DNA from: Candidatus Daviesbacteria bacterium
Lineage (GTDB): Bacteria; Patescibacteriota; Microgenomatia; Daviesbacterales; UBA10151
Direction of reading: 5' to 3'
NCBI GenBank assembly: GCA_028687915.1
Contig: JAQTZF010000001.1
Coordinates: forward strand, 1,966 to 65,965
DNA length: 64,000 nt
The notes under the pieces are model-generated. The model worked only from the letters and a program-made list of their open reading frames with translations, ran no database searches and had not been told where the DNA came from. A program made the translations under genes and the position numbers. Below are positions 1-36,052 of this stretch, one piece after another; the first letter of the stretch is position 1, and each line of letters begins with the position of its first letter.

Positions 1-230
1 TTTCAGGGTGCGGAGGAGCTTCTACTGTTATTCATGTTAACTTTGATACTTTTCCTGCTGGAGCTCAAACTATTTACTATTATTATGGTAACCTTTCAGC
101 CTCAGATGGTTTTAATCTGGCTGATTTTGCTACTCAGGCTTCTAATTATACTGTAGGTTCTTTGGGATCAGAGGAAAAAAGTGTGGGACCAGTAGCTTAT
201 TGGGGATTTGATGAAGGGCAAGGCCAAACC
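1..230 (+). repeat. Segmental duplication: nt 1-230 are identical to 5110-5340 (tandem paralogous genes)
   Basis: Direct comparison shows no mismatches over ~230 nt. Further identical blocks at 760-860/5950-6050, 2090-2400/7320-7640, 2780-2940/8050-8200 and 3600-3830/8810-9040. Confidence 0.85.
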
Positions 231-4391: not shown

Positions 4392-4437
4392 AATAGTATC
4401 TGGTATCTAGTATTTAGTATATGGCAAATATAAAAAA

Positions 4438-4812
4438 ATGGAAAATAATAAAATAAAATCTTTTACTGATTTAATAGCTTGGCAGGAATCACATCAGTTA
4501 GTCCTGATCATTTATAAAATGCTTAAAACTTTTCCCAAAGAAGAGGTTTTTGCTTTAACTGATCAAATGAGAAGATGCTCTATTTCTATTAGTTCAAATA
4601 TTGCAGAAGGATTTTCTAGACAAGGGAAAAAAGAAAAAATGCAATTCTACTATATGGCAAAAGGATCACTAACCGAACTTCAAAACCAGCTCTTAGTTAG
4701 TAGAGACGTGGGTTATATTTCAAAAGAGAAGTTCACTGAAATAGCAGATCAAACAGTATTAGTACATAAATTATTAAATGGTCTGTTAAAATCTTGTTTC
4801 GCAAAATACTAA
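4438..4812 (+). CDS. Four-helix-bundle protein (23S rRNA intervening-sequence protein family, TIGR02436-like; Avd-like fold family)
   Basis: 124 aa. Motifs WQESHQLVLIIYKMLKTFPKEEVFALTDQMRRCSISISSNIAEGFSR ... AKGSLTELQNQLLVSRDVGYI match the family consensus W.KA..L...IY..T..FPK.E.Y.LT.Q.RRA..SI..NIAEG ... GS..EL.T.L.IA...GYI. Confidence 0.8.
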   Translation: MENNKIKSFTDLIAWQESHQLVLIIYKMLKTFPKEEVFALTDQMRRCSISISSNIAEGFSRQGKKEKMQFYYMAKGSLTELQNQLLVSRDVGYISKEKFTEIADQTVLVHKLLNGLLKSCFAKY

Positions 4813-4822
4813 ATACTAAATT

Positions 4823-7800
4823 ATGAAGCTAAATACTAAATACAAAATACTAAATACAAAAAAAATACTCACTCTTACTATTTTAGCCCTTTGTACAGGG
4901 ATTTTCTTGTGGTTCTTTACTAATCCAGCCTCTGCTGCCTGGTGGGATGATAGTTGGACTTTTAGAAAATCAATTGCTCTTACCAACAATACCACTGCTG
5001 AAACAAATGTTTATGTTTCAGTAACTATTAATACAACAGATACATCCAGATTCCAGACTGATTGTGGTGATGTAAGGTTTACCAAACAAAATGGTGAACT
5101 ACTTCCCTATTATATTGTTTCAGGGTGCGGAGGAGCTTCTACTGTTATTCATGTTAACTTTGATACTTTTCCTGCTGGAGCTCAAACTATTTACTATTAT
5201 TATGGTAACCTTTCAGCCTCAGATGGTTTTAATCTGGCTGATTTTGCTACTCAGGCTTCTAATTATACTGTAGGTTCTTTGGGATCAGAGGAAAAAAGTG
5301 TGGGACCAGTAGCTTATTGGGGATTTGATGAAGGACAAGGCCAGACTACTCAGGATTCTAGTACTAATAATTATGATGGAACTTTGGGGGCCACTACTGG
5401 CTCCTCTACAGATGATCCTACCTGGCAAACAGAAGATATGTGTATTTCTGGTAAATGTTTAAAGTTTGATGGTGGTGACTATGTCAGTGGCGGTGATGTT
5501 AACCAAGTAGACAATGTTTCAGCTATCACCGTATCAGCCTGGGTAAAAGTAAATACAGCTACTAATTGGGCAGGTGTAATGGGAAAATCAAGTTCTGGTA
5601 CCAGTCGTTGGGGTATGGAACTGGCAGAAGCAAGCTATGGAGGAACTGATGATGTATTTATCATGATGGGTAATGGTGCCAACTCGTATGGTTACACCCA
5701 GGGAAATATTATTGATACTAATAAATGGCATCTTTGGACTATGGTTTTTGATGGAACTCAATCTGGAAATGCCAACCGTCTTAAATTTTACCTGGATGGA
5801 ATCCAAAGACCCCTTAATTTTGGAGGCACTACCATCCCTGCTACTACTCCTTCAAACAGTACTCCAATCACCATAGGTGCTGAGAATGCTTCCAGTTCTT
5901 TTTTAAATGGAATGATTGATGAGCCAAAAGTCTATAACTATGCTAAAACTGCTGCCCAAATCAAAGCTGATTATATCTCCAAATCAGGTAGTTCTTCTGA
6001 CCAAGGCTCCTCTGCAGTACTTGGAGCATCTTCTCAAAAATACCTTTCTGATGGATTAGTAGGATACTGGAAAATGAATGAAGCTTCCTGGACTAATAAT
6101 TGTTCTGCTGCTTCTGTAACAGATTCTTCTGGTAATGGTAATAATGGTAAGGCATGCCCAAATGCAACAGGACCAACAGGAGGCAATATTGGTACTTTTG
6201 GTAATGGTGGATCTTTTGATGCAGTTGATGACAATATAGCAGTAACTCATGCTAGTTCACTTAGCCTAACAGATTCTATTACTATATCTACCTGGGTTAA
6301 AGTTACCTTAAATAATTCCTGGTCAGATCATGTTATTTTATATAAACAAAACGGAGCCACGTTAAATTATGCGTTTGGAATTAGAGAACAAAATGGTTTA
6401 TTCCCTGATTTTGCATATACTGATGGATCAGGATCAAATAACCATAAATGGAGATCAACTACAGCAATAAGTGCTGACACCTGGACCCATATTACTGTGA
6501 CCTATTCTTTTGGTAAAGCTAATACGATGGCTATATATATTAATGGTGTTCCAGCTAGTGGATCCTGGATTAGCGGTAATGGTAATAGTTCTGCTGATAC
6601 AACCACTACTGACTTATTAATATCTCCTGGAAACAGTACCCTAGATGACCTCCGTATTTATAATAAAACCCTGTCCCCCAAAGAAGTTTCTGATCTCTAT
6701 AACTTTGCCCCAGGGCCAGTAGGATATTGGAATATGGATGATAAAGTTTCTGGTGATTCCAAAACTGTAGTTGATTCCTCTGGTAATGGGAATAATGGGA
6801 CCACAAGTTACGGTGCAAATACCTCTGGCATGGATTGTTCTAAATCAGGTAAGTTTGGTGGTGGCTGTACCTTTGATGGTGTGGATGATTATATTGATGT
6901 AGGATCTGATACTTCTTTAGATAATCTCCCAAATGGAGATTTTACAGCTGAGGCTTGGACAAGATTTGATGCCGCACTTACAGAAACATATTGGCTGATT
7001 CTTGGAAAAACTAAATGGCAGATCGAACCGTTTTATAATGGTGCCCAATCTTCAATTTGGTTCTTTGTAGACATGGGAGCTGGGACTAGTATGGATTACC
7101 GTTGCCAATTTACCTATGACAGAGGTAATTGGCATCATATTACAGGAGTTTATACAGCCAGCACTAAAACAGCGGTAGTTTATTATGATGGCACCCCCTT
7201 AACTTGCTCAACAACTACTGCCGGTGTTGGTACTTATATTGGAGATGCTGCAAGCCCAATGAGAATTGGTATGAATCAGGGTGATGGAACCCCTAAAATG
7301 AATGGTGGACTTGATGATGTCAAAGTTTATAACTATGCTCGTACTCAGAAACAAATTATCTCTGACATGAACGCAGGGCATCCTGCTGTTGGCTCCCCTG
7401 TGGGATCAGCTTTGGGATATTGGAAATTTGATGAAGGAGCAGATAATAAATGCTCTGGAGGCACTAATGATGTTTGTAATTCAGGCTCAGCTGGCTCTGC
7501 TTTAGATGGAGCAGAATCTAATATGAGTATTCCAGCCACAACTACTTCTGGCTGGACTAATTCTGGTAAATTTGGCAAAGCTTTAATATTTGATGGAAGC
7601 AATGATTTTATTAGTGTTGCTAATAATGCAGCTTTAAATTTTGACACTGGCTCTTTTTCTATTTCAACCTGGATGAAAACAACATTTTCAGGAGCAGGAG
7701 AAAAAATACTTATAAGAAAAGATCTAGAATCTCAATCTCCCAGAAGACTTTATACTCTTTTCTATAATCTTGTAGCTAATAAAGCAACTTTTGATCTCTA

Positions 7801-9616
7801 TGACAATGCTACTGAATATAAAGCCACTTCTCTTACCTCAGTAAATGATGGTAATTGGCATCATATTGTTGGAGTAAGAGATTCAACAACCAATCAAATC
7901 AAATTATATGTTGATGGAAAATTGGAAGCTAGCACAGCTATAACTGGAATTAACATAACTAATACCGGGGTGTTAAAATTTGGTAGTTACACAGAAACTG
8001 TCGGTGCCTTTTTCTCCGGTTCCATTGATGAAAGTAAAATCTATGGCTACGCCTTAACTGCTGATGAGGTTAAGACTGAATATAACAGAGGACAATCTAT
8101 GGTATTAGGTGCTGCTGGGAATAATTCTTCTTATGCCTCTCAAGCTGCTAATCAGGAATATTGTGTCCCTGGAGATACCACCTCCTGTGTTGCTCCTGTT
8201 GCTGAATGGAAGCTTGAAGAAGGATCTGGAATTAGTGCTTATGATACTTCAGGAAACGGATCAACCGGGACTTTGACTAATACTCCTGTTTGGACCAATG
8301 GCAAGTATGGTAAAGCGCTTAATTTCTCTGGTACATCATTTATAAATGTAACTGATAGCAATAATTTAAGTCCTGCAAGCAACACATTTAGCGTTGGTGC
8401 TTGGATATACTTAAATTCTACTGGTTCCTATCAAACAATTGTTTCTAAGGATAGTGATGCTGCCAATGGAGGAAGAGAATATTTCTTATATATAGACATC
8501 TCAAACGTAGTAGTTTTTGGAGCTTCTACAAATGGTAATGATATGCCGGCGGTTGTCGGGCTCAGTACTTTATCAGCTGGCAGGTGGTACTATATTGAAG
8601 CTGTTTTAAGCGGATCAAACCAAATGATCTATGTAAATGGTAAGCTTGATAATTCTGCTAACTGGGGTGGCAGCAGTATTCCTAATACTAATACAGCACT
8701 TAATATTGGCAGAAGAAATACTGCCCCTGTAACTAAAGCCCAAATGGATGGTAAAATCGATGACGTCAGATTGTATAATTATGCCCATACCCCTGCTCAG
8801 ATTGCCTGGGATTATAATAAAGGAGCACCTATTGGGCACTGGAAATTTAATGAGTGCCAGGGAGCTACAGCTAATGATTCTTCAGGGAATTCCAATACTG
8901 GAACTATTACTATTGGCACAGGTGCTGGCACAGGACAACAGGATTCTGTAGGAACCTGCACTACTTCTGCTGTTACAGCCTGGTACAACGGCAGAACCGG
9001 AAAAAGAAATTCCAGTCTTAATTTTGATGGGATTGATGATACAGTATCTATTGCCAACCAAGCTAATTTTTCTTTTGAACGCACACAACCATTTTCTATC
9101 TCTGGGTGGATCTATCCAAATATTACCCGCTCCGGATTGCAAATGACTTATGCGATTTTTAGCAAATTAACAAATAACTCACCTTTCACCGGCTATGAAA
9201 TGAATCTGGAATGGAATAATGCCACCCTCACAAATAGAACAACGCTTCAAATTTACTTAATTAGCAGCTGGCCTTCAAACCGAATTACTGTGAACGGTTC
9301 AACAGATCTCCAAAACAGTAGATGGTATCATGCAACATTAACTTATGATGGCTCTTCAGCTGCCAGCGGTGTTAAGCTTTATATAAACGGAGCTGCGGAA
9401 AAGATTACCACTAGTGTTGATGCTTTAACCACAAGTATTGTTAACAACTTAACCCCTTATATTGCCTCCCGACAAAATTCCAATAGCTCAGAAGCCTTAT
9501 TTAATGGCCAGATTGATGATGTGAAAGTTTTTAACTATACCCTTACCTCTACACAAGTTAAAGATTTATATAATGGCGGAGCTGTAAACTTTGGTCCGGT
9601 TACAGGCAGCCCATGA
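4823..9616 (+). CDS. Giant surface protein: signal/TM anchor, DUF2341-like N-domain, then ~8 LamG (concanavalin-like lectin) modules
   Basis: 1597 aa. N-terminal hydrophobic helix. AWWDDSWTFRKSI...DVRFT...LPYYIV...YYYYGN fits DUF2341. Repeated LamG terminal motifs (DDLRIYNKTLSPKEVSDLYN, DDVKVYNYARTQKQI, DESKIYGYALTADEVKTEYN, DDVRLYNYAHTPAQIAWDYN, DDVKVFNYTLTSTQVKDLYN). Long blocks are nucleotide-identical to the gene at 1..4391. Confidence 0.85.
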   Translation: MKLNTKYKILNTKKILTLTILALCTGIFLWFFTNPASAAWWDDSWTFRKSIALTNNTTAETNVYVSVTINTTDTSRFQTDCGDVRFTKQNGELLPYYIVSGCGGASTVIHVNFDTFPAGAQTIYYYYGNLSASDGFNLADFATQASNYTVGSLGSEEKSVGPVAYWGFDEGQGQTTQDSSTNNYDGTLGATTGSSTDDPTWQTEDMCISGKCLKFDGGDYVSGGDVNQVDNVSAITVSAWVKVNTATNWAGVMGKSSSGTSRWGMELAEASYGGTDDVFIMMGNGANSYGYTQGNIIDTNKWHLWTMVFDGTQSGNANRLKFYLDGIQRPLNFGGTTIPATTPSNSTPITIGAENASSSFLNGMIDEPKVYNYAKTAAQIKADYISKSGSSSDQGSSAVLGASSQKYLSDGLVGYWKMNEASWTNNCSAASVTDSSGNGNNGKACPNATGPTGGNIGTFGNGGSFDAVDDNIAVTHASSLSLTDSITISTWVKVTLNNSWSDHVILYKQNGATLNYAFGIREQNGLFPDFAYTDGSGSNNHKWRSTTAISADTWTHITVTYSFGKANTMAIYINGVPASGSWISGNGNSSADTTTTDLLISPGNSTLDDLRIYNKTLSPKEVSDLYNFAPGPVGYWNMDDKVSGDSKTVVDSSGNGNNGTTSYGANTSGMDCSKSGKFGGGCTFDGVDDYIDVGSDTSLDNLPNGDFTAEAWTRFDAALTETYWLILGKTKWQIEPFYNGAQSSIWFFVDMGAGTSMDYRCQFTYDRGNWHHITGVYTASTKTAVVYYDGTPLTCSTTTAGVGTYIGDAASPMRIGMNQGDGTPKMNGGLDDVKVYNYARTQKQIISDMNAGHPAVGSPVGSALGYWKFDEGADNKCSGGTNDVCNSGSAGSALDGAESNMSIPATTTSGWTNSGKFGKALIFDGSNDFISVANNAALNFDTGSFSISTWMKTTFSGAGEKILIRKDLESQSPRRLYTLFYNLVANKATFDLYDNATEYKATSLTSVNDGNWHHIVGVRDSTTNQIKLYVDGKLEASTAITGINITNTGVLKFGSYTETVGAFFSGSIDESKIYGYALTADEVKTEYNRGQSMVLGAAGNNSSYASQAANQEYCVPGDTTSCVAPVAEWKLEEGSGISAYDTSGNGSTGTLTNTPVWTNGKYGKALNFSGTSFINVTDSNNLSPASNTFSVGAWIYLNSTGSYQTIVSKDSDAANGGREYFLYIDISNVVVFGASTNGNDMPAVVGLSTLSAGRWYYIEAVLSGSNQMIYVNGKLDNSANWGGSSIPNTNTALNIGRRNTAPVTKAQMDGKIDDVRLYNYAHTPAQIAWDYNKGAPIGHWKFNECQGATANDSSGNSNTGTITIGTGAGTGQQDSVGTCTTSAVTAWYNGRTGKRNSSLNFDGIDDTVSIANQANFSFERTQPFSISGWIYPNITRSGLQMTYAIFSKLTNNSPFTGYEMNLEWNNATLTNRTTLQIYLISSWPSNRITVNGSTDLQNSRWYHATLTYDGSSAASGVKLYINGAAEKITTSVDALTTSIVNNLTPYIASRQNSNSSEALFNGQIDDVKVFNYTLTSTQVKDLYNGGAVNFGPVTGSP

Positions 9617-11751: not shown

Positions 11752-13506
11752 ATGAAAAAATTTATTTATATTCTAATCTTAATAGTAACAATATTTCTTG
11801 CCGTAAGTAATTTTGATAATCTAAAAAACTTTCTAAGCATAAAATCTGAAGAGCAAAAAGTAATTGAGCTAAAAACTAAAAAAGAACCTTTAACCAAAGA
11901 AGAATTAAAGTTCCTTTTGGGGAATGCATCAATCCAAAGTATTAAAATTGGGGAAAAAGAGTACTCTTATATAAATAAAAAAGTTGTGGCTAAAAATCAG
12001 CAAAATGTATCAGAGGGTGAAGAAAGAAAAGTATTACAACTGGCTCTATTTTACCTTAGTGTTAAAGAAGACCCTTTATTTACCAGCCCAGAATTTGAGG
12101 TTAAAGATTTTAATAATTCTATTTCTATTTTAGAGCAGGAACAAACTCAACTTCTTACTGTGGCTAAAAAAAATACTTCTATTTTCCCTCTCACCTTTTT
12201 AAAAACAATTTCTGATGTTTTTGATAAAGAAAAAATGTTTTTGACTGACACTAGTTTGGAAAATGCTCAAAACTTACTAAAAACTTACACATTAACTGCT
12301 TCAGCTTATAAAACAGACATAACCTCTTTTACCAAAGGTCTGGAAGCAAAAAAAGCCTATCTTAGCGAACCAGATGTTATTCAACTCAAAGTAGCTACCA
12401 ATACAGAAATTATGCTTGCTGATTTAAAAAAAATGATGGAAAATGGCTCAATTTTAGAATCAGAGGCACAAAAGAGAACTAATTGTCTAAACTCAGGTCA
12501 AAACTGCAGCAGAGAAATCTTTTTCTTTAAAACCCCGGAAATTACAGAAATTGCAAAAGATAAATTTAGTATGCTTCCTCTTACTATACTGTTCCCAATT
12601 CATCCGGATGAGCCTGAATCATTTCGTAAGCTATATATTATCCACTCCCCTTGTTGGGGCTGGGGGCCTGATTTTTCTTCTCCTGCCAACCCTATGTATG
12701 TTGACCATTCAAACGCTAAATTAATAATAGATGCAGAAGGAAATTACCCAAAATCTTTATCTTTAAAATTGGGCAATCAAAACTTTTACAGAAAAGTGGA
12801 CAATACATCAAATAATATAAATAAAAGTTTATCTGAGCTGGGCCTGCGACGGGTTTTACAATCAGAAACAGCCGGTTACCTTTGTAGAAACCTGGAATAC
12901 CAGCCAATGTCAGCAACCATTGATGCTTTTATCAGAGAGTATAAAGATAAACCAATTCTGGGTGGTTTAGATGCAAAAATAGCTAAGTTTGAAAATAACT
13001 TTTTAAATTCTGCCACACCGGCAGATACAGACCTTATTACATTAAGTAAAATTTACAGTTCTGTTTATAAAGATTTGTCTTCCAAAAATTTAAACCCGGA
13101 ATTACAAAACGAAAGCCTAAAAAGATATTTGATGATTAACAGGCAACTATTAGGTTTTCCTAAGATATTAAATAAATCTGCCAATGAATTTTCCCGCTTA
13201 ATTCAACTCCACGAATCTCAACCTGATGTCTTTAAAGAAGAAGGTACTTTTTATGCCTATGTTTTCCCATTTAAAAGTTACTGGAACCTTTTATACTTCC
13301 CTTTTTCTCCTTCCTTCTGGAGATCAGATGCCCACCCTGAATATATAAAGAAGATTGTAATTAATAGTAGCTTTCCCATAAACCAGAAAACATTTATTAC
13401 TTATCCGGAAGCACAATCTATTGCAAACCCGGAGGAAATTAATAGATGGTCCATAGAAGGTTATAAATATACCCTGGAAAAACTGCCACCAACTAGGATT
13501 AACTAA
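11752..13506 (+). CDS. Hypothetical secreted/membrane-anchored protein
   Basis: 584-aa ORF with an N-terminal hydrophobic helix (MKKFIYILILIVTIFLAVSNF). Its stop overlaps the start of the downstream ABC ATPase gene. No recognisable motif. Confidence 0.55.
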   Translation: MKKFIYILILIVTIFLAVSNFDNLKNFLSIKSEEQKVIELKTKKEPLTKEELKFLLGNASIQSIKIGEKEYSYINKKVVAKNQQNVSEGEERKVLQLALFYLSVKEDPLFTSPEFEVKDFNNSISILEQEQTQLLTVAKKNTSIFPLTFLKTISDVFDKEKMFLTDTSLENAQNLLKTYTLTASAYKTDITSFTKGLEAKKAYLSEPDVIQLKVATNTEIMLADLKKMMENGSILESEAQKRTNCLNSGQNCSREIFFFKTPEITEIAKDKFSMLPLTILFPIHPDEPESFRKLYIIHSPCWGWGPDFSSPANPMYVDHSNAKLIIDAEGNYPKSLSLKLGNQNFYRKVDNTSNNINKSLSELGLRRVLQSETAGYLCRNLEYQPMSATIDAFIREYKDKPILGGLDAKIAKFENNFLNSATPADTDLITLSKIYSSVYKDLSSKNLNPELQNESLKRYLMINRQLLGFPKILNKSANEFSRLIQLHESQPDVFKEEGTFYAYVFPFKSYWNLLYFPFSPSFWRSDAHPEYIKKIVINSSFPINQKTFITYPEAQSIANPEEINRWSIEGYKYTLEKLPPTRIN

Positions 13507-14261
13507 TGAATACACTTATCCAGGTAAAGCACCTTTCATTTTCCTACCTTACCAGAACTGGTTCATTTACAGCTTTAAAAGACCTCTCTTTTGAAATAAA
13601 TAAGACAGAATTTGTTTGTATTATTGGCCCTTCAGGTTGTGGCAAAACCACTCTTTTAAACTGTTTAGCCGGGCTCCTTAAACCAACCCAGGGAGAATTT
13701 TATTTAAACGGTCAAACAGCTGTGGTTTTCCAAGACCCACTTCTTTTACCCTGGAGAAATGTTTTAACGAATATTACTTATGGTCTGGAAATTCAAAAAA
13801 TAGATCCTCAGGAAATTGCCAAAAGAGCTAAAAAGATACTATCCACCCTTAAGCTTGCTGATTTTGCCCATTTTTACCCCCATCAGCTCTCCGGAGGAAT
13901 GAAACAAAGAGTAAACTTAGGCCGGGCACTTATTTGTAATCCAGATATTTTACTGCTTGATGAGCCGCTCTCCCATCTTGATCCTCAGACCAGAGAACAA
14001 ATGCAGCTTGAAATCCTAAGAATCTTTGATAAAGAGAAAAAAACTTTTATCTTTGTCACCCACTTAATTGAAGAAGCAATCTTTTTGGCAGACAGATTGA
14101 TAATTTTAGGTAAAAGTCCCGGAACAATTAGAGAAGTTATTAAAATTAATTTTAAACGGCCAAGAGATTTAACCTTAAAACACAACCGTAAATTCCAGAA
14201 CATGGAAAAATTAGTGAACGATATATTAACTTCAGAAGGTGCTGATGAGGAAAATCCATGA
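13506..14261 (+). CDS. ABC transporter ATP-binding protein (NitT/TauT nitrate/sulfonate/bicarbonate-type)
   Basis: Walker A GPSGCGKTT, ABC signature LSGGMKQRVNLGRAL, Walker B LLLDEPLSHLD. 251 aa, typical for SsuB/TauB-like ATPases. Confidence 0.85.
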   Translation: MNTLIQVKHLSFSYLTRTGSFTALKDLSFEINKTEFVCIIGPSGCGKTTLLNCLAGLLKPTQGEFYLNGQTAVVFQDPLLLPWRNVLTNITYGLEIQKIDPQEIAKRAKKILSTLKLADFAHFYPHQLSGGMKQRVNLGRALICNPDILLLDEPLSHLDPQTREQMQLEILRIFDKEKKTFIFVTHLIEEAIFLADRLIILGKSPGTIREVIKINFKRPRDLTLKHNRKFQNMEKLVNDILTSEGADEENP

Positions 14262-15031
14262 ATAGAATTTTTAAAATTTATCAAAATCAGCAGCATTTTT
14301 TTCTTGGGTTCACTGGTGCCCTTATTTTCCTAACCATATGGGAGATTATTACCAGGACAAAAATAATCAATCCCATCTTTCTAAGTCCACCCACAGAAAT
14401 CTTACAAACAGAATGGATCCTTTTTACATCCGGTAAAATCTTTCCTCATCTTTTTATATCTTTACAAGAATTTTCATTAGGTTTTGCCATAGCAATAATT
14501 CTTGGAGTATCTTTGGGACTGCTCATTGGTTGGTATAAAAAGATAGAAGCTTTAACTTCATCACTTATCTACAGCCTTTACTCTACCCCCAACATTGCTT
14601 TGCTACCATTGATCATTATTTGGACCGGACTTGGAATATGGTCCAAAATTATTGTGGTTTTTCTGGGAGCATTTTTCCCAATCTTAATCAATACTATCGC
14701 GGGGGTTAAAAACCTAGATCCTAATTTAGTTTCTCTTGCCCGCTCATTCGGGGCAACAGAAAGTCAAATATTCAAAACAATTATTTTTCCTGCATCCCTA
14801 CCCTATATTTTAACCGGATTTAAACTAGCTATTCCCCGAGCAATGATTGGAATGATTATTGGGGAATTCTTTGTTTCCAATCAAGGACTGGGATATTTAA
14901 TTACTTTTTACGGTTCAACCTTCCAAACAGCAGAGATTCTGGCAGTAGTTGTAATTGTAGTAATTATTAGTGTTTCCCTGACTAAACTATTGTCATATCT
15001 GGAAAAACATTTTCAATCCTGGAAAGTTTAA
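14258..15031 (+). CDS. ABC transporter permease (SsuC/TauC-like, BPD_transp_1)
   Basis: 257 aa, ~6 TM segments, EAA-like loop region (ARSFGATESQIFKTIIFPASLPYILTGFKLAIPRAMIGMIIGEF). Translationally coupled (4-nt overlap) to the upstream ATPase gene. Confidence 0.8.
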   Translation: MNRIFKIYQNQQHFFLGFTGALIFLTIWEIITRTKIINPIFLSPPTEILQTEWILFTSGKIFPHLFISLQEFSLGFAIAIILGVSLGLLIGWYKKIEALTSSLIYSLYSTPNIALLPLIIIWTGLGIWSKIIVVFLGAFFPILINTIAGVKNLDPNLVSLARSFGATESQIFKTIIFPASLPYILTGFKLAIPRAMIGMIIGEFFVSNQGLGYLITFYGSTFQTAEILAVVVIVVIISVSLTKLLSYLEKHFQSWKV

Positions 15032-16308
15032 TCTAAATGAGAAACTATTTTTTTGTGTTTACTACTCATCGGAAAGCTATTGATAAACTCCACCTCTAAC
15101 GGTTTAAATATCTCTTCGGAAACCAAACTGGCTAAAGTGCGCCTGGCAGATAAATACAGCTCCTCACTAAATCCTTTTACTATTAATTTTATTAGCTTTT
15201 CTGACTTACCCTGATAACCTTTTTTTAAGATAAGCTGTAACTTTAACCTTGGAATTATTTTTTCTTTTTCTAAATCCTCAAAGACGTGTAACTGGAATTT
15301 AGGTGATGATAGATATTGTTGGAAAGGAAGCAGGGCTTTTTCTACTAAGTCTGCATAAATAAAAACTCCATGTATTTTTAAAGCATCATAATTAATTCTA
15401 CCCAATATTTTAAATCTTTCTTTTTGGCCACACCCACAATCATAATCCTCTACTTCTATTGCATCACCTGTTTTGTACCTAATTAATGGAAACCCATTTT
15501 TATATAAATTAGTAAGAAAAAGTTCGCTGTCTCCGCTTGAATTAATAACTTCATAATAATAATTTGAAGATTTATGGAAGTAATTAGTGCTAAGAGTATC
15601 CAGGCACCCACAACTTAAACCAATCGCCCCTCCCTGGGCTTCTGACATTCCATAATTATAAATAAACCGCGTGTTTTTAAATTTTTTCTTAAATATCAAA
15701 TCCTTTTGTTTGGAACAAAATTCCCCAATTAATGAAATTCTTTTAATATTATCTAAACTATATTCTTTTTCTAAAAACGGTATAAAAAAATATAGGGCTG
15801 TTGGTGAAGTTACAAGTAAATCTATTTTTAATTTGGCAGCAATTTTAGCTGAAAGCGGTAGATTATTAATATCACCTAATACACAAACCGCATTATCCTT
15901 TATTCTTTTTCTATCAAGTAAATGCATGGCAGCTTGATGTGGAGATAATAATTTCATTATAGATGTTACATGAAAGTCATCCCTCGACTTACCTCCTTTA
16001 TCTTTATAAATTTGCCTGGCAAGATTTTGCTGTCTAAATACCACAGATAAAGAGTTTATATTTTTGGTAGTACCACTGGAAATACTCACTGTCCCAAATT
16101 CACTCCAGGGTAAATAAAATCTGCTAAAGGGATCAGAACTAACCAATTCATCTTTAGTTAAATATGGAAGTTTTTTAAAATCTTCCATACTATTAATATC
16201 TTTAATTAAATTTATTCCAGCCTTGGTATATTTATCTTTATAAAAAGAAGAATAAGGAGAGTTCCAGACAAACTCTAATATTTTTTTAATTTTTGAATCT
16301 AATTTCAT
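15028..16308 (-). CDS. PaaK/CapK-like adenylate-forming ligase (phenylacetate-CoA ligase / coenzyme F390 synthetase family), paralog 1
   Basis: 426 aa. N-terminal FYKDKYTKAGINLIKDINSMEDFKKLPYLTKDEL matches the PaaK pattern (YR..F...GV.P.DI.SLEDL.KLPFT.K.DL). SSGTT motif (ISSGTTKN). Size typical of PaaK (~430 aa). Confidence 0.75.
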   Translation of the reverse strand: MKLDSKIKKILEFVWNSPYSSFYKDKYTKAGINLIKDINSMEDFKKLPYLTKDELVSSDPFSRFYLPWSEFGTVSISSGTTKNINSLSVVFRQQNLARQIYKDKGGKSRDDFHVTSIMKLLSPHQAAMHLLDRKRIKDNAVCVLGDINNLPLSAKIAAKLKIDLLVTSPTALYFFIPFLEKEYSLDNIKRISLIGEFCSKQKDLIFKKKFKNTRFIYNYGMSEAQGGAIGLSCGCLDTLSTNYFHKSSNYYYEVINSSGDSELFLTNLYKNGFPLIRYKTGDAIEVEDYDCGCGQKERFKILGRINYDALKIHGVFIYADLVEKALLPFQQYLSSPKFQLHVFEDLEKEKIIPRLKLQLILKKGYQGKSEKLIKLIVKGFSEELYLSARRTLASLVSEEIFKPLEVEFINSFPMSSKHKKIVSHLD

Positions 16309-16309
16309 T

Positions 16310-17599
16310 CTATTGGTGATAAATAATATTTATATTTTTAGGGGGCACATATTCTATGGATTGAACAAACTCTACCTCTATAGGCAAAAACCTTTTTTGC
16401 TTAACTAATTCTTCAAGACTTTCCATGGATTCAAAAAATAATTTTTGATTTATAGCTTTTACTATCTTTTTTTTAGCACTGCTTTTATTAATACCTTTTC
16501 CCAGCATTAACTGAAAATGTAATCTGGGTAATTTGTTCTTTTTATCTTTTTCATATATATGTAATTTCCAGTTAGAAATATCTAAAATATCTTTTTGAGA
16601 AACAATTAAATCATCAATTGGTTCCGGATAAAAATAGATTCCTCCTGCTTTAATGACATCAGTTCCAATCCTTCCAAAAACCTTTATTACCTCTTTCTCC
16701 CCACACTGACAATCTTCTATGTAGCTTTTAACCATATCCCCTGTTTTATATCTGATTAAAGGCAACTCTCGTGAATTATCCAGATGTGTTACTACTAATT
16801 CACTTTCTTCTTTTGGATTAATAAACTCATAATATAAATGTGGTCTGGGATGTAAAAGTTGTGGAGATTGTTTAACCAGGTACTTACAGCTTCTTCCCAT
16901 ACCACCAACTCCTGTAGCAGCATACTTAAGATTAAAATAAGCGTTGGGAAACTTTTCCTTAAAATAACTGAGCCTTTCACTGGAACGATATTCCCCTCCC
17001 ATACTTATATACTTAATCTTTTTTAAGTCATAAAATTTTTCAAGATGTGGAAGTAACCTGGTGAGATTAGAGGGTGATATTATCATCGAATCTACCCGAA
17101 GTTTTGACATTAACATAGCAGTTGATGGCATATTATAAAGATTAGCTAAATAACGGTTAATACTTTTATGCCTTATTTCCAGAGAATCTAAATAAATAAC
17201 CGGCACAAGAAAAATCATGCAGCTTTTAACCCCTAGCTCCACTGCCTTCTGAGACATTTTCTTAGTACGGGCGTTTAACTCATTTGCTCTTAAGATAACC
17301 ACCCGATTTTCAGACGTAGTACCGCTTGAAATACTATAAAGTTTAAATTTATCAATTGGTAAATAGAACCTGTCAAACGGATCTGAATTGATAAAATCTT
17401 CCCTGGTTAAATATGGAAGTTTTTTAAAATCTTCCATGCTATTAATATCTTTAATTAAATTTATTCCAGCCTTGGTATATTTATCTTTATAAAAAGAAGA
17501 ATAAGGAGAGTTCCAGACAAACTCTAATATTTTTTTAATTTTTTTAAAGATAACCTCTTCTCTACTCTTTTTCATAATGCTAATATAACAGATACTCAA
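16310..17599 (-). CDS. PaaK/CapK-like adenylate-forming ligase, paralog 2 (true start may be Met9 at 17575)
   Basis: 429 aa. The N-terminal block LEFVWNSPYSSFYKDKYTKAGINLIKDINSMEDFKKLP is identical to that of paralog 1. ISSGTTSENRVVIL motif. Confidence 0.75.
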   Translation of the reverse strand: MSICYISIMKKSREEVIFKKIKKILEFVWNSPYSSFYKDKYTKAGINLIKDINSMEDFKKLPYLTREDFINSDPFDRFYLPIDKFKLYSISSGTTSENRVVILRANELNARTKKMSQKAVELGVKSCMIFLVPVIYLDSLEIRHKSINRYLANLYNMPSTAMLMSKLRVDSMIISPSNLTRLLPHLEKFYDLKKIKYISMGGEYRSSERLSYFKEKFPNAYFNLKYAATGVGGMGRSCKYLVKQSPQLLHPRPHLYYEFINPKEESELVVTHLDNSRELPLIRYKTGDMVKSYIEDCQCGEKEVIKVFGRIGTDVIKAGGIYFYPEPIDDLIVSQKDILDISNWKLHIYEKDKKNKLPRLHFQLMLGKGINKSSAKKKIVKAINQKLFFESMESLEELVKQKRFLPIEVEFVQSIEYVPPKNINIIYHQ

Positions 17600-17605
17600 A
17601 CCATT

Positions 17606-18673
17606 ATGAAGAATATCTATTTTACCTTAGGGCCCTCCCAACTTTTTCCAGGGGTGGAAGGTTTTGTAAAAAAAGCTTTAAGTGAAGATATTTTATCTCT
17701 TTTTCACCGTAGTCCAAAAGGTCAGGATATTTATCAAAGTGCAACAGAAAATTTAAAGATTCTTTTAAATATTCCGAAAGATTTTCATATTTTCTTCTTA
17801 TCTTCCAGTACAGAAGCAATGGAAAAAATACTGGAAAATTGTGTAGAAAAAAACAGCTTTCATTTTATTAACGGAGCTTTTTCTGAAAGGTTTTATGAAA
17901 CCGCAACTGAATTAAAAAAGAAACCACTTTTTTTAAAAGCCCCACTTGGAGAAGGTTTTGATTTTACAAAAGTAAAGATTCCTTCTAACACTGAAGTTAT
18001 CTGCTTTACCCAAAATGAAACAAGTACCGGAGTTGCTCTAAATCCAAATGATATTTATAGATTTAAAAAGCTGCATCCTCAAAAGTTAATTGCTGTTGAT
18101 ATTGTGTCCTCAATACCCACTATTGACCTTGATTACTCGATGATTGATTTATCCTTCTTCTCAGTCCAAAAAGGCTTTGGCTTACCAGCAGGGCTGGCAG
18201 TATTAATTGTCAGCCCTCAAGCTTTTAAAAAAGCCATGGAATTAAAAAACAAAGGATTAAATATTGGCAGTTATCATAACTTTGCCAACTTACAACACTA
18301 TGCACTTAACAACCAAACAATGGAAACACCAAATGTTTTAGGGCTTTATCTTTTAAATAAAGTTGTTACAAAAATGTTAAAAATAGGGATTAAAAGTATA
18401 AAACAGCATACAGACAAAAAGGCTAAACTTCTATATGATTTTTTTGATAGTGATAAAAGGTTTGAGCCATTTGTGAAAGATAAAAATCTTCGCTCTAAAA
18501 CAGTAATTGTTATTAATGTTCAAACAGACTCTCAGCAAATCGCAGAGAAACTGGCAACCAATGGTATTATCATTGGTACAGGTTACAAGCAATTAAAATC
18601 AAGCCAGATCAGAATTGCAAACTTTCCAGCTCATAACCTAAAAGATATAAAAAAGCTAATTGCTAATCTTTAA
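17606..18673 (+). CDS. Class V aminotransferase, phosphoserine-aminotransferase (SerC)-like
   Basis: 355 aa. FSVQKGFGLPAGLAVLIV resembles the SerC PLP-lysine region (AGAQKN.GPAGL..VIV). C-terminal GYKQLKSSQIRIANFPAHNLKDIKKL resembles SerC (G.RASIYNAMP.EGV..L). Confidence 0.65.
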   Translation: MKNIYFTLGPSQLFPGVEGFVKKALSEDILSLFHRSPKGQDIYQSATENLKILLNIPKDFHIFFLSSSTEAMEKILENCVEKNSFHFINGAFSERFYETATELKKKPLFLKAPLGEGFDFTKVKIPSNTEVICFTQNETSTGVALNPNDIYRFKKLHPQKLIAVDIVSSIPTIDLDYSMIDLSFFSVQKGFGLPAGLAVLIVSPQAFKKAMELKNKGLNIGSYHNFANLQHYALNNQTMETPNVLGLYLLNKVVTKMLKIGIKSIKQHTDKKAKLLYDFFDSDKRFEPFVKDKNLRSKTVIVINVQTDSQQIAEKLATNGIIIGTGYKQLKSSQIRIANFPAHNLKDIKKLIANL

Positions 18674-18723
18674 ATTTCTTACATGATTGATTTATGGATT
18701 ACTTTATGTAAGAATCCAAATCA

Positions 18724-19767
18724 GTGAAAAAGAATATTGCGGTCGTTGTTGGTATATTATTAATTCTGTTGGTTGGGGCCTACATTTTTGGAAAAAATAA
18801 ATTGATTCCCTCTTCCTCTGTTACACAACAAGATCAGTCACTTGTAACAACCAATAACACTCCTTCAAAGATGACACTCATTACTACTAATGTTAAATCA
18901 AATCAAATTCCAATAGTTGTGGCACTCAAAAAAGGTTTTTTCCAAAAATATAATATAGAAACCAATATCGAAGAAGTGCCGAAAAATTCTCTTCAAGTAT
19001 TAGTTTCCGGAAAAGCTGATGCTATATTAATTACTCCTAATATAGCTTTGGCTGCTGCTGTAGAAGGAGCTGAAATTTCTTGGATTGGAACAGTTAACAA
19101 CAACAATAATTGGGTGGTTGTATCAAATAAAAATATTCAGGAAATTAAAAGCATGGGTGTTCTTAGCGGGCTGGATAAAGTTAATTCTCTAAGTCTCCTT
19201 CAACTTTTAAAGGTTAATACAGATAATATCCAGTTTCAGGAACTAGCTGATACACAAACAAAATTAACTGCCTTAAAAGAAAAACAAGTAGATTCTGTTG
19301 GTGTTGCCAAAACTGACTGGCTTTTATTCAAAAAGAAGTTCAATCTTTCTGATGATTATCAAATTATTTTAGACTCCTCCGTAAACCAGGATGCAGCTTT
19401 ACCAATTGCAGTAATTGCCAGAAATGGATTTTTAGAAGATAAAAAAACTTCTGAAAATTTTATCCAAGCATTAGTTGAAGCAGACTACTGGATAAAAAAC
19501 AAGGAAAATAAGGAAGAGTTAATAAAGTTGATTTCAGAATTTTATCCAAATATGCCCTCTGATGATGCTGTGGTATATGCCGATGTTTATCTCTCTACAC
19601 TTGCTGGCTTAAATCCCATTCCTGATATCAAAAAAGGAGAAAACATATTAAAACTTATCAATAACATAAACCCTAAAGCCAGGGATTATGATATTAATAA
19701 ATTTGTATCTACAAAAATAATTACATCTCTTAAAGAGTCTGGTTTTTTAAATCAATTTAACTTTTAG
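18724..19767 (+). CDS. Membrane-anchored ABC substrate-binding protein, NMT1/SsuA-like (paralog A)
   Basis: 347 aa. N-terminal TM anchor. Blocks LTALKEKQVD, EADYWIKN and NPKARDYDINKF are shared with the two downstream paralogs. Lies adjacent to the NitT/TauT-type ABC genes. Confidence 0.6.
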   Translation: MKKNIAVVVGILLILLVGAYIFGKNKLIPSSSVTQQDQSLVTTNNTPSKMTLITTNVKSNQIPIVVALKKGFFQKYNIETNIEEVPKNSLQVLVSGKADAILITPNIALAAAVEGAEISWIGTVNNNNNWVVVSNKNIQEIKSMGVLSGLDKVNSLSLLQLLKVNTDNIQFQELADTQTKLTALKEKQVDSVGVAKTDWLLFKKKFNLSDDYQIILDSSVNQDAALPIAVIARNGFLEDKKTSENFIQALVEADYWIKNKENKEELIKLISEFYPNMPSDDAVVYADVYLSTLAGLNPIPDIKKGENILKLINNINPKARDYDINKFVSTKIITSLKESGFLNQFNF

Positions 19768-19812
19768 AAAAAGATTGACACTTTCTATTTATTATGTAAA
19801 AATACCTCACCA

Positions 19813-20835
19813 ATGAAAAAAGGCTTAAAGATTATTCTTCCGCTCTTATTTGTTGTAATAATTGGATCCTTGTTTTTTATAAAAAACAGTAATACAAATA
19901 CCCTTTCTGCTCAAAAACCCCCTGAGACAGTCAAACCAAAGATTACCCTTGTCTATTCACTCCGGGTTAACCAATTACCAGTAGCCATTGCTTTTGAAAA
20001 AGGATTATTTGATAAATATAATCTTCAGGTAGAAACCACTCAAGTCATTACTAATTCAGTTTCTGTTCTAAGTTCCGGTAAAGCAGATGTTTCCCTTGGT
20101 TCACCCAATATATCCTTAACATCTGTAACCCAGGGATCAGAGTTATCATGGATAGGTAATGTTAATAACGATCAGGGAACTGTTTTAGTATCCACTAAAA
20201 CTCCTGCAAACATTAAAACTGTGGGAGTAATCAGTGGCCCGTCAAAAGTACAAACAATTGGTCTGCTTGACCTTATCAAGGTTAATACTGAAAATTTAAT
20301 TTACCAAAACTTTAGTGATGGAAAAACAAAATTAACTGCCTTAAAAGAAAAACAAGTTGACGCAATTCATATCGCCAAACCAGATTGGCTTATTTTTAAA
20401 GAAAAAGCAGGATTATCAGATGAGTATAAAGTATTGCTGGATTCTGCAAGTTATAAAGAAGCGCAAATGCCTGTTTCTATTATTGTTAGAAATGAGTTTC
20501 TAAAAAATAATCCTCAAATAGTAGAAAATTTTACCAAAGCATTAATTGAAGCAGATTACTGGATTAAAAATAACAAAGAAGAATTTATTAGTATTTTACA
20601 AAAACGTTACGCTGATGTACCACCCGAAGATATAAAAATTGAAGCTGAATTATACTTTGCCAATATTCAAAATTTAGAATTTAGCCCCACACAAGAAAAA
20701 GGCAAAGAAATGCTTAAGCTAGTAACAGCAGCTAACCCAAAAGCCAAAGATTACGATATAAATAACTTTATAAATACAGGTATTGCTGATTCGTTAAAAA
20801 GTTCAGGTTTCTTAGATCAATATAATTTAAATTAA
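19813..20835 (+). CDS. Membrane-anchored ABC substrate-binding protein, NMT1/SsuA-like (paralog B)
   Basis: 340 aa, about 40-50% identical by eye to paralog A (KTKLTALKEKQVD, ALIEADYWIKNN, NPKAKDYDINNF). Confidence 0.6.
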   Translation: MKKGLKIILPLLFVVIIGSLFFIKNSNTNTLSAQKPPETVKPKITLVYSLRVNQLPVAIAFEKGLFDKYNLQVETTQVITNSVSVLSSGKADVSLGSPNISLTSVTQGSELSWIGNVNNDQGTVLVSTKTPANIKTVGVISGPSKVQTIGLLDLIKVNTENLIYQNFSDGKTKLTALKEKQVDAIHIAKPDWLIFKEKAGLSDEYKVLLDSASYKEAQMPVSIIVRNEFLKNNPQIVENFTKALIEADYWIKNNKEEFISILQKRYADVPPEDIKIEAELYFANIQNLEFSPTQEKGKEMLKLVTAANPKAKDYDINNFINTGIADSLKSSGFLDQYNLN

Positions 20836-20841
20836 TAAATC

Positions 20842-21879
20842 ATGAATAACAAAAAAATATTATTATCTATAGTGGTATTACTTATCCTTGGCCTTAGCGC
20901 TTTCTTTTTCTTTATTAACTTTAATAAAACTCCAAGCCCTGTAAATACAAAGCCAGCTCCCTCTAGGATAAGCGTTGCCTATATTAGTTTTAATAAAATG
21001 TATGGCATCCCTTTAATAATCGCTGAAAATACTGGACTATTTAATCAATATAATCTTTTAGTGGAGACCAAAGCTACTGATAAAAGCCCGACAAAACTAC
21101 TCGTCGCAAATCAGGTAAATACAATTTTAAACACTCCTTTTGCCCCACTCACAGCAAATACTGAAGGAGCAACCCTTTCCTGGGCCGGAACAATATTTAA
21201 TGATTCGCCTATCGTCTTAGTTTCTTCCAAAGAACCTCAAAATATCAAAACTGTAAGCTACCCTGCCGGAGGAGGAGTCCTGGGTAAAACCAGAACTATT
21301 CAATTATTAAAAGCACTTAATTTGGATCCCGCTAAGATTGTTCTAAATGAAGTTAGTTCAGAACAAATAGCTATGACCACTCTGACAGAAGACAAAGTAG
21401 ATGCTGCTGCAAACATTACAAAAAGTGACTGGTTAATTTTTAAGAAAAAAAATAACTCAGAAAATAATAAATATAAACTCTTAGTCTACTCTGTTGAAAA
21501 AGAAAACCTGCAAATAAGCGGCGGCATTATCTATAGCAAGGATTTTTTAACCGATAATAAGACAACTGCTGAAAACTTTAGTAAAGCCTTAATTGAAGCT
21601 ACCGCCTGGACACGTCTGAATAAAGAGAAAGCAATTGATATATTGGCTAATAAATATTCTATTGAGAAAGACGAAGCAGAAATTTATTGGGATGAGTTTG
21701 TTGCTGTAACAAATAATGTAACTTTTGCCCCTAATTTAGACCAGGCTGAAACACTTTTACAAATCATTAAAACAACAAATCCTAAAGCAGAAACATACCA
21801 GGCAAGTTCTTTTATCTCTACTGACATAAACAACTCTTTAAAGAACAGCGGTTATTTGGAAAAATTCGGATTTAAATAG
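20842..21879 (+). CDS. Membrane-anchored ABC substrate-binding protein, NMT1/SsuA-like (paralog C, more divergent)
   Basis: 345 aa, same architecture. Shares TKSDWLIFKKK, ALIEATAW and NPKAETY blocks with A and B. Confidence 0.55.
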   Translation: MNNKKILLSIVVLLILGLSAFFFFINFNKTPSPVNTKPAPSRISVAYISFNKMYGIPLIIAENTGLFNQYNLLVETKATDKSPTKLLVANQVNTILNTPFAPLTANTEGATLSWAGTIFNDSPIVLVSSKEPQNIKTVSYPAGGGVLGKTRTIQLLKALNLDPAKIVLNEVSSEQIAMTTLTEDKVDAAANITKSDWLIFKKKNNSENNKYKLLVYSVEKENLQISGGIIYSKDFLTDNKTTAENFSKALIEATAWTRLNKEKAIDILANKYSIEKDEAEIYWDEFVAVTNNVTFAPNLDQAETLLQIIKTTNPKAETYQASSFISTDINNSLKNSGYLEKFGFK

Positions 21880-23149
21880 TTTCAACAAAAATCGATTTCT
21901 GCTTGGGAGAAATCTGAAAGCCATCTACAAATTCTATTTTTAAAGCAGAAAACATTTTCTCTTCTACCAATTGAGAAAATGTTTTACCAGACAAAAAATG
22001 AATATTATCACTAACTAGTTTTTCCAGATCTGACTTAATATTTTTATTAAAATTATCTTTAACAATAAGCTGTAACTTAAATTTAGGAAGAGATTTATCC
22101 TTAATGGAATTTGTTATAAATAATTTCCAGGCAGCAGCGCTTAAGTATTTACCAAGAGGATATATAGCTTTATCTATTTGCTCTCTGTAGATTAGATTAC
22201 CTTTTACTCTAACATTATCCATTCCAATCCTGCCATAAATCTTCATCTTCATACTCCTTCCACATTCACATTCTTCTTGATAAACTTTTGCCATATCCCC
22301 TGTTTTATATCTAATAATAGGAAACTCTGTCTTAGTATAAAGACTTGTAAGAACTAATTCACTTTCCTCTTCCGGATTATTTACTTCAAAATAGGTATAT
22401 TGTGTTAACGGATGAACTATATTCTCTGGTGGCTTATTATTATAGAAATCACAAACATAACTCGTTGCCCTGGACTCTGTTAAATTATAGGCAAATCTAA
22501 AATAAGCGTTCTTAAATGTCTTTTTAAAATAATCAAACCTTAAAGGTGAGCAAGGCTCTCCACCAACGCTAATATACCTAATTTGATCTAAAGCTTTTTG
22601 TTTTATCAGATGTGGGATTAGTTGCTCCAAAATAGAAGAGGTAGCAGCAAACCCTTCAATTCTTAATTCCTTAATAACTATGGCAGCGTTCTCTAGATTG
22701 TGAATACTTCCCAAATAACGAGTAATACTTTTATCCTTAAACGCAGGTCTGTTTATTGCCCAGGCAGCAGATGATACTACTACAATCATTGCTGTCTTGA
22801 TTTTTAAATCAAGAGCTTTTTGCACAGCCAATTTATCTGCCGGGTGAGGAAAACCTGCCTTCAGCATAATTAAAATCCCTTTACCTCCTGTAGTGCTGCT
22901 ACTAAACTGGGCACCTTTTATTTTTTCTTTAGGAAAATAAATCCTCTCATAAGGATCAGTCTTAATAATTTCTTCCCGCGTAAGGAATGGAAGTTTTTTA
23001 AAATCTTCCATACTATTAATATCTTTAATTAAATTTATTCCAGCCTTGGTATATTTATCTTTATAAAAAGAAGAATACGGAGAGTTCCAGACAAACTCCA
23101 AAACCCGACGAATCTTTTTAAAATCAGAACTTGTTTGAATATTTTTCAT
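21872..23149 (-). CDS. PaaK/CapK-like adenylate-forming ligase, paralog 3
   Basis: 425 aa. The same identical N-terminal block (LEFVWNSPYSSFYKDKYTKAGINLIKDINSMEDFKKLP). SSSTTGGKGILIM motif. Confidence 0.75.
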   Translation of the reverse strand: MKNIQTSSDFKKIRRVLEFVWNSPYSSFYKDKYTKAGINLIKDINSMEDFKKLPFLTREEIIKTDPYERIYFPKEKIKGAQFSSSTTGGKGILIMLKAGFPHPADKLAVQKALDLKIKTAMIVVVSSAAWAINRPAFKDKSITRYLGSIHNLENAAIVIKELRIEGFAATSSILEQLIPHLIKQKALDQIRYISVGGEPCSPLRFDYFKKTFKNAYFRFAYNLTESRATSYVCDFYNNKPPENIVHPLTQYTYFEVNNPEEESELVLTSLYTKTEFPIIRYKTGDMAKVYQEECECGRSMKMKIYGRIGMDNVRVKGNLIYREQIDKAIYPLGKYLSAAAWKLFITNSIKDKSLPKFKLQLIVKDNFNKNIKSDLEKLVSDNIHFLSGKTFSQLVEEKMFSALKIEFVDGFQISPKQKSIFVETI

Positions 23150-23197
23150 ACTTATGGAGGAAATATACTAAAAGATTCAACTTAACACAAGTGCTGA

Positions 23198-23473
23198 TTA
23201 AAAGAATCCACCACATCCAACAAATAAACAATCAGCTGGATTTTCAGACTTCTCAAAAACAATATTTTGGGATTTATCGCTTGATGCTTTATCTACATTT
23301 TTAGAAAAACAATTTAAGGAGTCCCCTGCACGTTGAGGTACGCTCTGTGTTGGCTGGTTAATAACAAGGTTAATTATTGGACGCCAATAATCTTCTTTAG
23401 ATATAAAAATTAATAAACTAAATATTGGTAGTATTGTAAAAAATAATATAACTTTTTTATTAATCTTTTTCAT
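23198..23473 (-). CDS. Small membrane-anchored hypothetical protein
   Basis: 91-aa ORF with an N-terminal TM helix. No similarity recognised. Confidence 0.35.
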   Translation of the reverse strand: MKKINKKVILFFTILPIFSLLIFISKEDYWRPIINLVINQPTQSVPQRAGDSLNCFSKNVDKASSDKSQNIVFEKSENPADCLFVGCGGFF

Positions 23474-33175: not shown

Positions 33176-33902
33176 CACGATTACAGTTATAAATATATTC
33201 TTTGACTTGGAATAAGCGAAGCTTGCGAGCTTTGCTCTTAAAGAACGTTAAAAATTTTCTCAGAAAATTTAGGGTACACCTTTCGCAAAGCGAAAGGCAA
33301 GCTATGCTTACTTCCCGTCAAAGTGGCTTTGGGCGTCTTTGCCACCAAAGACGCAAAATAAATAGATGAAAATAAGAGAAAAAATTTTGTACTCAAACTT
33401 ATAGGATTAGTTAGGTAGAATTGGATATTTTACACTTCAATCCTGTGGCTAACGCCCGGGACCTAGGTGCTTTGCACTCTGGAATGTGAATACGATATTA
33501 GTCAAAGGCTTTGAGCCAAAAAAACTCAACGATGACCATTAGTACTCTTAAGCTAAACACCTTACGATGCTTACACTGAGAGCCTATCAACCCGGTAGTC
33601 TTCCGGGGGTCTTAAAGATTCCTAATCTCAGGATCTGCTTCGTGCTTAGATGCTTTCAGCACTTATCAGGAAAGAACGTAGCTACCCGGCGCTGCCATTT
33701 TATGACAACCGGCACACTAGAGGTTCCCTCGTCTCGGTCCTCTCGTACTAGAGACAACTTCCCTCAAGAATCAAAACGCCCATACTGGATAGAGTCCAAC
33801 CTGTCTCGCGACGGTTTGAACCCAGCTCGCGTACCACTTTAACTGGCGAACAGCCAGACCCTTGGGACCTTCTACAGCCCCAGGATGTGATGAGCCGACA
33901 TC

Positions 33903-34213: not shown

Positions 34214-34251
34214 GTGCCGAACGATACCGTCCTTGTGGACTGTTGGGTATC

Positions 34252-34285
<34 letters not shown>

Positions 34286-34597: not shown

Positions 34598-34635
<38 letters not shown>

Positions 34636-34842
34636 AAGTATGGGAAGGCCGCATCTTCACAGCCACTGCAATTTCGCCGAGTCTATCCTCAAGACAGTTC
34701 CTAAGTCGTTCTACCTTTCGTGCGGGTCTGAACTCCATTTTAAAACTGTCATTCTAAATAAATTTAGAAATCTTACATTTGTTTTTATGATTTAATGATT
34801 TTTAAATCCTCTACGTCGCCATAGAGATCGGACTATATCTTG

Positions 34843-36015: not shown

Positions 36016-36052
<37 letters not shown>

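Follow-up and report, generated by a model that had tools for sequence, protein, structure and literature searches.

A 64,000-nt stretch from a metagenome-assembled genome (MAG) of Candidatus Daviesbacteria, referred to below as the window, carries three genes encoding PaaK-like adenylate-forming enzymes (ligases A, B, and C) that are nearly identical over a block of 115 nt close to their 5′ ends and diverged elsewhere. We conclude that this block is very probably a tract of recent interparalog (ectopic) gene conversion among three old, diverged ligase genes. The original prediction, made from the sequence of the window, had proposed that gene conversion had occurred recently and only at the 5′ end, and this proposal is supported by lines of evidence that all agree, namely, the identity of synonymous sites, the discordance between the trees of the block and of the gene bodies, conserved synteny, and recurrence in other genomes.

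Three divergent ligase genes share a nearly identical block

The three ligase genes lie within 7 kb of one chromosome, and each is a full-length open reading frame (ORF) that starts at an ATG of its own and encodes a distinct N-terminal leader. The genes and the copies of the block are as follows.

15028..16308, minus strand: ligase A (PHQ59_00045), 426 aa, A-type PaaK-like adenylate-forming enzyme; ORF, identical to P0016, A clade of the body tree (see below)
16310..17575, minus strand: ligase B (PHQ59_00050), 421 aa from the ATG at 17575, B-type paralog
21872..23149, minus strand: ligase C (PHQ59_00075), 425 aa, C-type paralog; C clade of the body tree
16164..16278, minus strand: presumed converted block, A copy; the A-B tract spans 16157-16294
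17413..17527, minus strand: presumed converted block, B copy (corrected coordinates); the A-B tract spans 17406-17543
22987..23101, minus strand: presumed converted block, C copy, from the repeat search and alignment

The mechanically called ORF of ligase B begins at a TTG at position 17599 (16310-17599); the database protein P0001 and the alignment of orthologs favor the ATG at 17575.

A repeat search of the window returned the block as part of one three-copy direct-repeat family (16109-16294, 17358-17543, and 22932-23117), with offsets of +1249 from the A to the B copy and of +6823 from the A to the C copy. The block lies 30 to 60 nt downstream of the start codon, at the same position in each gene, and is translated as LEFVWNSPYSSFYKDKYTKAGINLIKDINSMEDFKKLP in all three. 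The A and B copies differ by one mismatch (16189/17438), the A and C copies by two (16255/23078 and 16276/23099), and the B and C copies at three positions. The near-identity of the three copies was thus confirmed, with two amendments to the original prediction: the mismatches number one to three rather than one to two, and the B copy, which had been placed at 17416-17530, is shifted by 3 nt to 17413-17527.

The extent of the identical tract depended on the pair of genes. Between A and B, it covered approximately 138 nt (16157-16294), the single mismatch being a synonymous AGT/AGC difference, and between A and C it covered 112 to 115 nt (16164-16275/16278). Codon-level alignment revealed that identity drops beyond the tract edges immediately to ~50 to 65%, even at conserved residues, as expected from the sharp boundary that had been described. 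Outside the block, the A, B, and C pairs displayed 31 to 36% identity at the protein level, within the range of ~30 to 40% initially reported, and 48 to 53% identity at the DNA level.

The ligases are ancient paralogs

The three ligases matched PaaK-type NCBIfam models with scores far under the curated cutoffs (57 to 63 bits versus 646 for TIGR02155 and 77 to 80 versus 700 for NF041878). Since the scores are so far below equivalog cutoffs, the proteins are PaaK-like adenylate-forming enzymes and not PaaK itself. They also matched the sequences of solved structures of the PaaK family (4R1L, 9S3L, and 2Y27). Inspection of the sequences and of the family alignment revealed the adenylation motifs SSGTT (SSSTTG in ligase C), IRYKTGD, and GRI.D, as well as a Lys at position 413 that is invariant. 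Ligase B has YAATG at the place of the TE/SE found in relatives.

For comparison, we used the DNA sequences of another 18 homologous genes, which came from eight contigs (L001, L002, L003, L004, L006, L008, L170, and L171). In a tree of the gene bodies, i.e., of the sequences outside the block, the genes formed three clean monophyletic clades corresponding to types A, B, and C. The identity of the body proteins was 47 to 83% within types versus 31 to 41% between types. Positional orthologs of the ligases were present in seven other Microgenomates contigs, and gene order was kept in L001-L008 and L171. In most loci, the A-type gene adjoins a permease gene and the C-type gene lies tail-to-tail with a gene encoding a binding protein. 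These type-specific clades and conserved gene positions indicate that A, B, and C are ancient paralogs, far older than the genomes that carry them. Conserved synteny and the old divergence of the bodies therefore exclude a fresh duplication. L004 and L171 contain only the C and A ligases; the B type was lost, or never gained, more than once.

A scan of genomes from the GTDB with the full-length ligase alignment added no relatives: matches to P[LIV]IRY[KR]TGD, a general motif of PaaK, saturated it, and the homologs obtained were all distant PaaK sequences (≤27% identity). Among the matches listed in a metagenome scan with block-specific patterns, we found L001 again (as L090), the organism of L004 again (as L093), and two single-ligase contigs (L091 and L092).

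Evidence for gene conversion in the window

Block DNA identity among the three copies of the window was 97 to 99%, and these copies clustered by genome rather than by type, which is the reverse of the body tree. This is the pattern of concerted evolution of an N-terminal module that had been anticipated. Across genomes, block identity averaged 74 to 75%, whether copies of the same type or of different types were compared. The same-type copies of different genomes were on average 74% and at most 82% identical; identity to the chimeric gene of L001 (see below) was 89 to 90%.

At identical block residues, the same codon was present in 35/36, 34/36, and 33/36 cases for the three pairs of window paralogs (0.92 to 0.97), versus 0.48 to 0.56 in the bodies of the same genes (Fisher P = 3e-7 to 5e-5). 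When orthologs from different genomes were compared, codon sharing in the block was 0.45 to 0.79, corresponding to a saturated baseline. In a Sawyer-type run test, the longest concordant polymorphic runs were 75, 59, and 43, versus a permutation maximum of 23, and none of the 2000 permutations reached the observed value for any of the three pairs. With the 75% between-genome block identity as the expectation, the binomial probability of at least 113 identical positions out of 115 was 3e-12. The lines of evidence used here, namely, paralogs closer to each other than to their orthologs, inclusion of synonymous sites, and synteny, are the same as those adopted in a survey of concerted evolution in prokaryotes (PMC6053082).

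Possible homogenization of the same region in related genomes

As had been recommended, we looked for the block in related genomes, and this revealed signs of weaker homogenization of the same region. In L002, the B and C copies of the block were 93% identical and had 28 of 33 synonymous codons in common. In L003, the three copies were 82 to 88% identical and had in common genome-specific codon choices and residues (GIDLL and WTSPY). In L006, a stretch of ~20 nt located just upstream of the block was identical in the three copies, the block itself being at baseline. These observations suggest weaker, presumably older homogenization of the same 5′ region in genomes other than that of the window.

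A fusion gene in a sister lineage

Contig L001 originates from a sister lineage with ~83% DNA identity to the window and carries a single ligase gene between the aminotransferase and permease genes. Upstream of the block, this gene is of the B type, including 30 nt that are unique to the B leader. Downstream, it is of the A type: over the 40 codons that follow, 39 informative sites are A-like and 6 are B-like, and in the rest of the gene the counts are 376 and 43. The crossover lies inside the block, and the B body is absent from the locus. Because a tandem B-then-A arrangement is common (L002, L003, L006, and L008), the fusion appears to be the derived state. A crossover between the direct repeats of B and A would be expected to yield such a gene and to delete ~1.25 kb, and accidental homologous deletion of this kind is a better explanation of the fusion than a programmed system. 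It may also be that the assembler skipped the loop formed by the B body and the A head. No separate contig with a B body from the same sample was present among the matches listed in the metagenome scan, a negative result that carries no weight as evidence for a deletion in L001.

In the same contig, the SerC-like aminotransferase (3073-4167) was called as two genes, of 258 and 100 aa, instead of one gene of 355 aa. This split points to a disrupted gene beside the fused ligase gene and suggests that the L001 locus is decaying.

Structural context of the block

An AlphaFold model of ligase B was built from a 30-sequence alignment and had a mean pLDDT of 90. The top entries of the PDB search with this model were 2Y27, 4RVO, 4R1M, and 9S45, with a probability of 1.00 and TM scores of up to 0.75; the best matches were PaaK1 (2Y27) and BT_0428, with TM scores of 0.72 to 0.75. 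The model fits the PaaK-type fold, with a truncated N-terminal domain and a C-terminal lid. The block corresponds to residues 17 to 54, which form the end of helix 1, a helix (residues 28 to 35), a loop, and a short helix (residues 47 to 50) upstream of the SSGTT P-loop. The block is thus predicted to form the core of the N-terminal helical region seen in PaaK enzymes and not an independent subdomain, in disagreement with the suggestion that it could form a separable N-terminal helix or subdomain. We also considered that the block might act as a dimer interface and rejected this role, since the dimer interface of PaaK1 is reported to be a β-sheet from the second subdomain and not to involve the N-terminal helices (PMC4432964).

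Weighing of the evidence and alternative explanations

Several observations weigh against recent gene conversion or limit what can be drawn from it. The outgroup blocks of L001 and L170 were 82 to 90% identical to the A, B, and C copies alike and singled out neither a donor copy nor a direction of transfer. The genome of the window is represented by a single assembly (P0001, P0008, and P0016 have one member and one contig each). The Sawyer-type test was not fully corrected for the lower variability of the block, and the weaker signals in L002, L003, and L006 are suggestive only. Finally, four of the seven multiparalog genomes (L004, L006, L008, and L171) displayed no excess of identity over the 38 codons of the block, L004, L008, and L171 being at baseline throughout. 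In view of these four genomes, conversion appears to be episodic rather than continuous.

Other explanations of the near-identity were evaluated. Purifying selection acting on the protein alone could keep the N-terminal block identical without any exchange of DNA. This explanation is scarcely credible, because such selection does not fix synonymous codons, of which the window paralogs share 92 to 97%, versus 45 to 79% for orthologs, as in the body, and because the block is just ~75% identical in DNA between genomes. Nucleotide-level selection on a functional DNA or RNA element (one that serves as a common target of antisense or small RNA, controls translation, or binds a protein) would be in keeping with three near-identical copies found at the same position, 30 to 60 nt after the start codon, in each mRNA. 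However, conservation of synonymous sites in the block does not extend to orthologs from different genomes, and four related genomes carry paralog blocks at baseline identity. In addition, no match to an Rfam family was found in the 15- to 24-kb region of the window, and the predicted RNA fold of the block was ordinary (z = −1.36). We therefore regard a functional element as highly improbable. The identity of synonymous codons among the window paralogs, together with their baseline identity between orthologs, is what eliminates both forms of selection. An artifact of assembly or polishing, by which distinct 5′ ends would have been merged into one consensus, must be considered for a MAG that was seen once and for repeats of 100 to 140 nt, which are close to the k-mer sizes used for short reads. 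Nonetheless, each copy has private differences (16189, 16255, and 16276), the length of the tract differs by pair, and the flanking sequences are in frame and unique. Intermediate stages (93% for B-C in L002 and 82 to 88% in L003) are seen in independent assemblies of other samples, and true copies with ~75% identity would have almost no k-mers in common to collapse. An artifact is thus quite improbable.

The original prediction had also raised the idea of a mechanism that swaps catalytic bodies behind a constant head. In such programmed or selected module swapping, the head would be a recombination cassette that allows bodies to be exchanged, deleted, or re-expressed from a single promoter and start, or it would match the three enzymes to one partner. 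This is compatible with the B-head/A-body fusion of L001, whose crossover falls inside the block, with homogenization of the same region in three lineages, and with the suggestion, in a passage of PMC4432964 citing Law and Boulanger (2011), that the N-terminal region of PaaK1 recruits partner enzymes. However, the features of a swapping system were not observed: all repeats are direct and not inverted, no recombinase domain was detected in the 19 neighboring ORFs scanned, and A, B, and C are each complete and have a start codon of their own, leaving no silent promoterless bodies. Heads are not kept identical in most genomes, and the split of the aminotransferase in L001 (258 plus 100 aa) resembles locus decay. 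Module swapping is accordingly improbable. In a related proposal, which we consider rather unlikely, the head would be a selected portable module: conversion would keep the three N termini matched to a shared partner, for example, the transporter or a downstream enzyme, and through deletion or duplication at the block, the direct repeats would enable populations to alter their set of ligases, as in the L001 fusion.

Proposed mechanism

Homologous recombination needs a certain length of perfect homology to start. In the family alignment, the N-terminal 60 aa had a mean column identity of 83%, versus 45% for the full-length proteins. Outside the window, 10 of the 13 paralog pairs had their longest exact DNA match (13 to 26 nt) in the first 200 nt of the gene. 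Unconverted paralogs were ~75% identical in DNA in the block, with exact matches of 20 to 26 nt, and their bodies were ~50% identical. Directly downstream of the block, the residues are type specific (LPWxxFG.VSISSGTT in A, PIDKFK.YSISSGTT in B, and FPKEK.KGAQFSS.TTGG in C).

We propose that the block was copied non-reciprocally by homologous recombination, presumably in a RecA-dependent manner. Since conservation in the family is highest in the block, recombination would be limited to it, and it is probably the sole segment that comes near the length of homology needed for the start of recombination. The onset of heterology and of type-specific residues would set the limits of the tracts, and downstream of the block, selection on specificity may contribute to their termination. 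The outcome would be tracts of 112 to 138 nt with sharp edges and episodic rehomogenization of the head only. Conversion itself may be selectively neutral. The same direct repeats could also serve as crossover points for deletion.

Organization of the locus and other features of the window

The genes surrounding the ligases are as follows.

13506..14261, plus strand: ABC transporter ATPase (Pfam ABC_tran)
14258..15031, plus strand: ABC permease (Pfam BPD_transp_1)
17606..18673, plus strand: SerC-like class V aminotransferase (Pfam Aminotran_5; NCBIfam serC matches below cutoffs), divergent from ligase B
18724-19767, 19813-20835, and 20842-21879, plus strand: three paralogous NMT1/SsuA-like substrate-binding proteins, from domain and profile matches

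The stop codon of ligase B is separated by a gap of 1 nt from the start of ligase A, indicating that these two genes probably form one operon. The genes for ligase A and the ABC permease are arranged tail-to-tail, as are those for ligase C and the third substrate-binding protein. The ABC ATPase and permease neighbors are also present in L001, L002, L004, L006, and L171. Among the three paralogous binding-protein genes, we found no comparable conversion tract, the best segment being 88% identical over 15 codons.

The whole gene cluster (11752-23473 in the window) is kept across Microgenomates contigs L001-L008 and L171. It comprises two to three PaaK-like ligases, one to three NMT1/SsuA-like binding proteins, and the ABC permease and ATPase. 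Further members are an unannotated protein of ~560 to 585 aa, a small protein of ~85 to 91 aa, and often a SerC-like aminotransferase.

Elsewhere in the window, a pair of giant paralogs (ORFs 162-4391 and 4823-9616; region 1-9616) displayed mosaic identity, with 96% between positions 1-253 and 5118-5370 and 76 to 85% in the other alignable segments. In the segment pair 1-253/5118-5370, this genome may have a second tract of recent conversion. Two group I introns (Rfam matches at 33917-34196 and 34809-35064) split the 23S rRNA gene (33520-37153, minus strand), and 5S rRNA, 16S rRNA, and tRNA genes are located nearby. Two tandem copies of an 87-nt Cys-rich coding repeat, 95% identical and 96 nt apart, are present at 56279-56461 within ORF 55158-56918.

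Significance and comparison with known systems

The ligase block is a clean but ordinary case of gene conversion and involves no new mechanism. It indicates that gene conversion can act on an island of residual homology of ~115 nt inside paralogs that are otherwise ~33% identical and that paralogs undergo homologous recombination with each other in these reduced genomes. Conversion of the ligase head appears to recur in separate lineages, and the homogenized repeat would then serve as a crossover point for gene fusion or loss. In practice, trees or ortholog calls based on the 5′ end of these ligase genes will mislead, and a repeat of this type is a point of assembly risk in genomes of the candidate phyla radiation.

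Segmental conversion occurs in multigene families such as pilE/pilS and opa of Neisseria. These systems, like the PE/PPE genes of Mycobacterium tuberculosis, generate diversity of surface antigens, often from silent cassettes, whereas conversion of the ligase block removes diversity in a conserved enzyme segment, all copies being complete. As at the ligase locus, PE/PPE and other repeats of M. tuberculosis display short tracts between dispersed paralogs that are bounded by heterology, and direct repeats give rise to deletions and fusions (PMC13061034 and PMC12046097).

Shufflons and phase-variable systems of the hsdS type bear a superficial likeness to the ligase locus in that a common 5′ segment is associated with different bodies clustered within a few kilobases. 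Those systems rely on inverted repeats, a dedicated recombinase, and promoterless alternative bodies, none of which were found at the ligase locus.

With respect to the enzymes, PaaK1 and PaaK2 of Burkholderia cenocepacia (2Y27 and 2Y4O) resemble the ligases in their fold, in the helical N-terminal segment that precedes the P-loop (the “N-terminal microdomain”), and in the motifs SSGTT, YKTGD, and GRxxD and the C-terminal Lys. B. cenocepacia likewise has paralogous copies of PaaK. Unlike PaaK, the ligases are not encoded in a paa operon but in the context of an ABC importer, three NMT1/SsuA-like binding proteins, and a SerC-like aminotransferase.

Further parallels are tufA/tufB, the rRNA operons, and the genes of the prokaryotic survey (PMC6053082), in which paralogs likewise resemble one another more than they resemble orthologs, synonymous sites included, and synteny excludes fresh duplication. 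Classic concerted evolution involves whole, nearly identical genes, whereas the ligase genes convert only 112 to 138 nt and encode proteins that are otherwise 31 to 36% identical. The host also differs, being a reduced-genome bacterium of the candidate phyla radiation, in which deep functional divergence and a homogenized head are combined in one gene.

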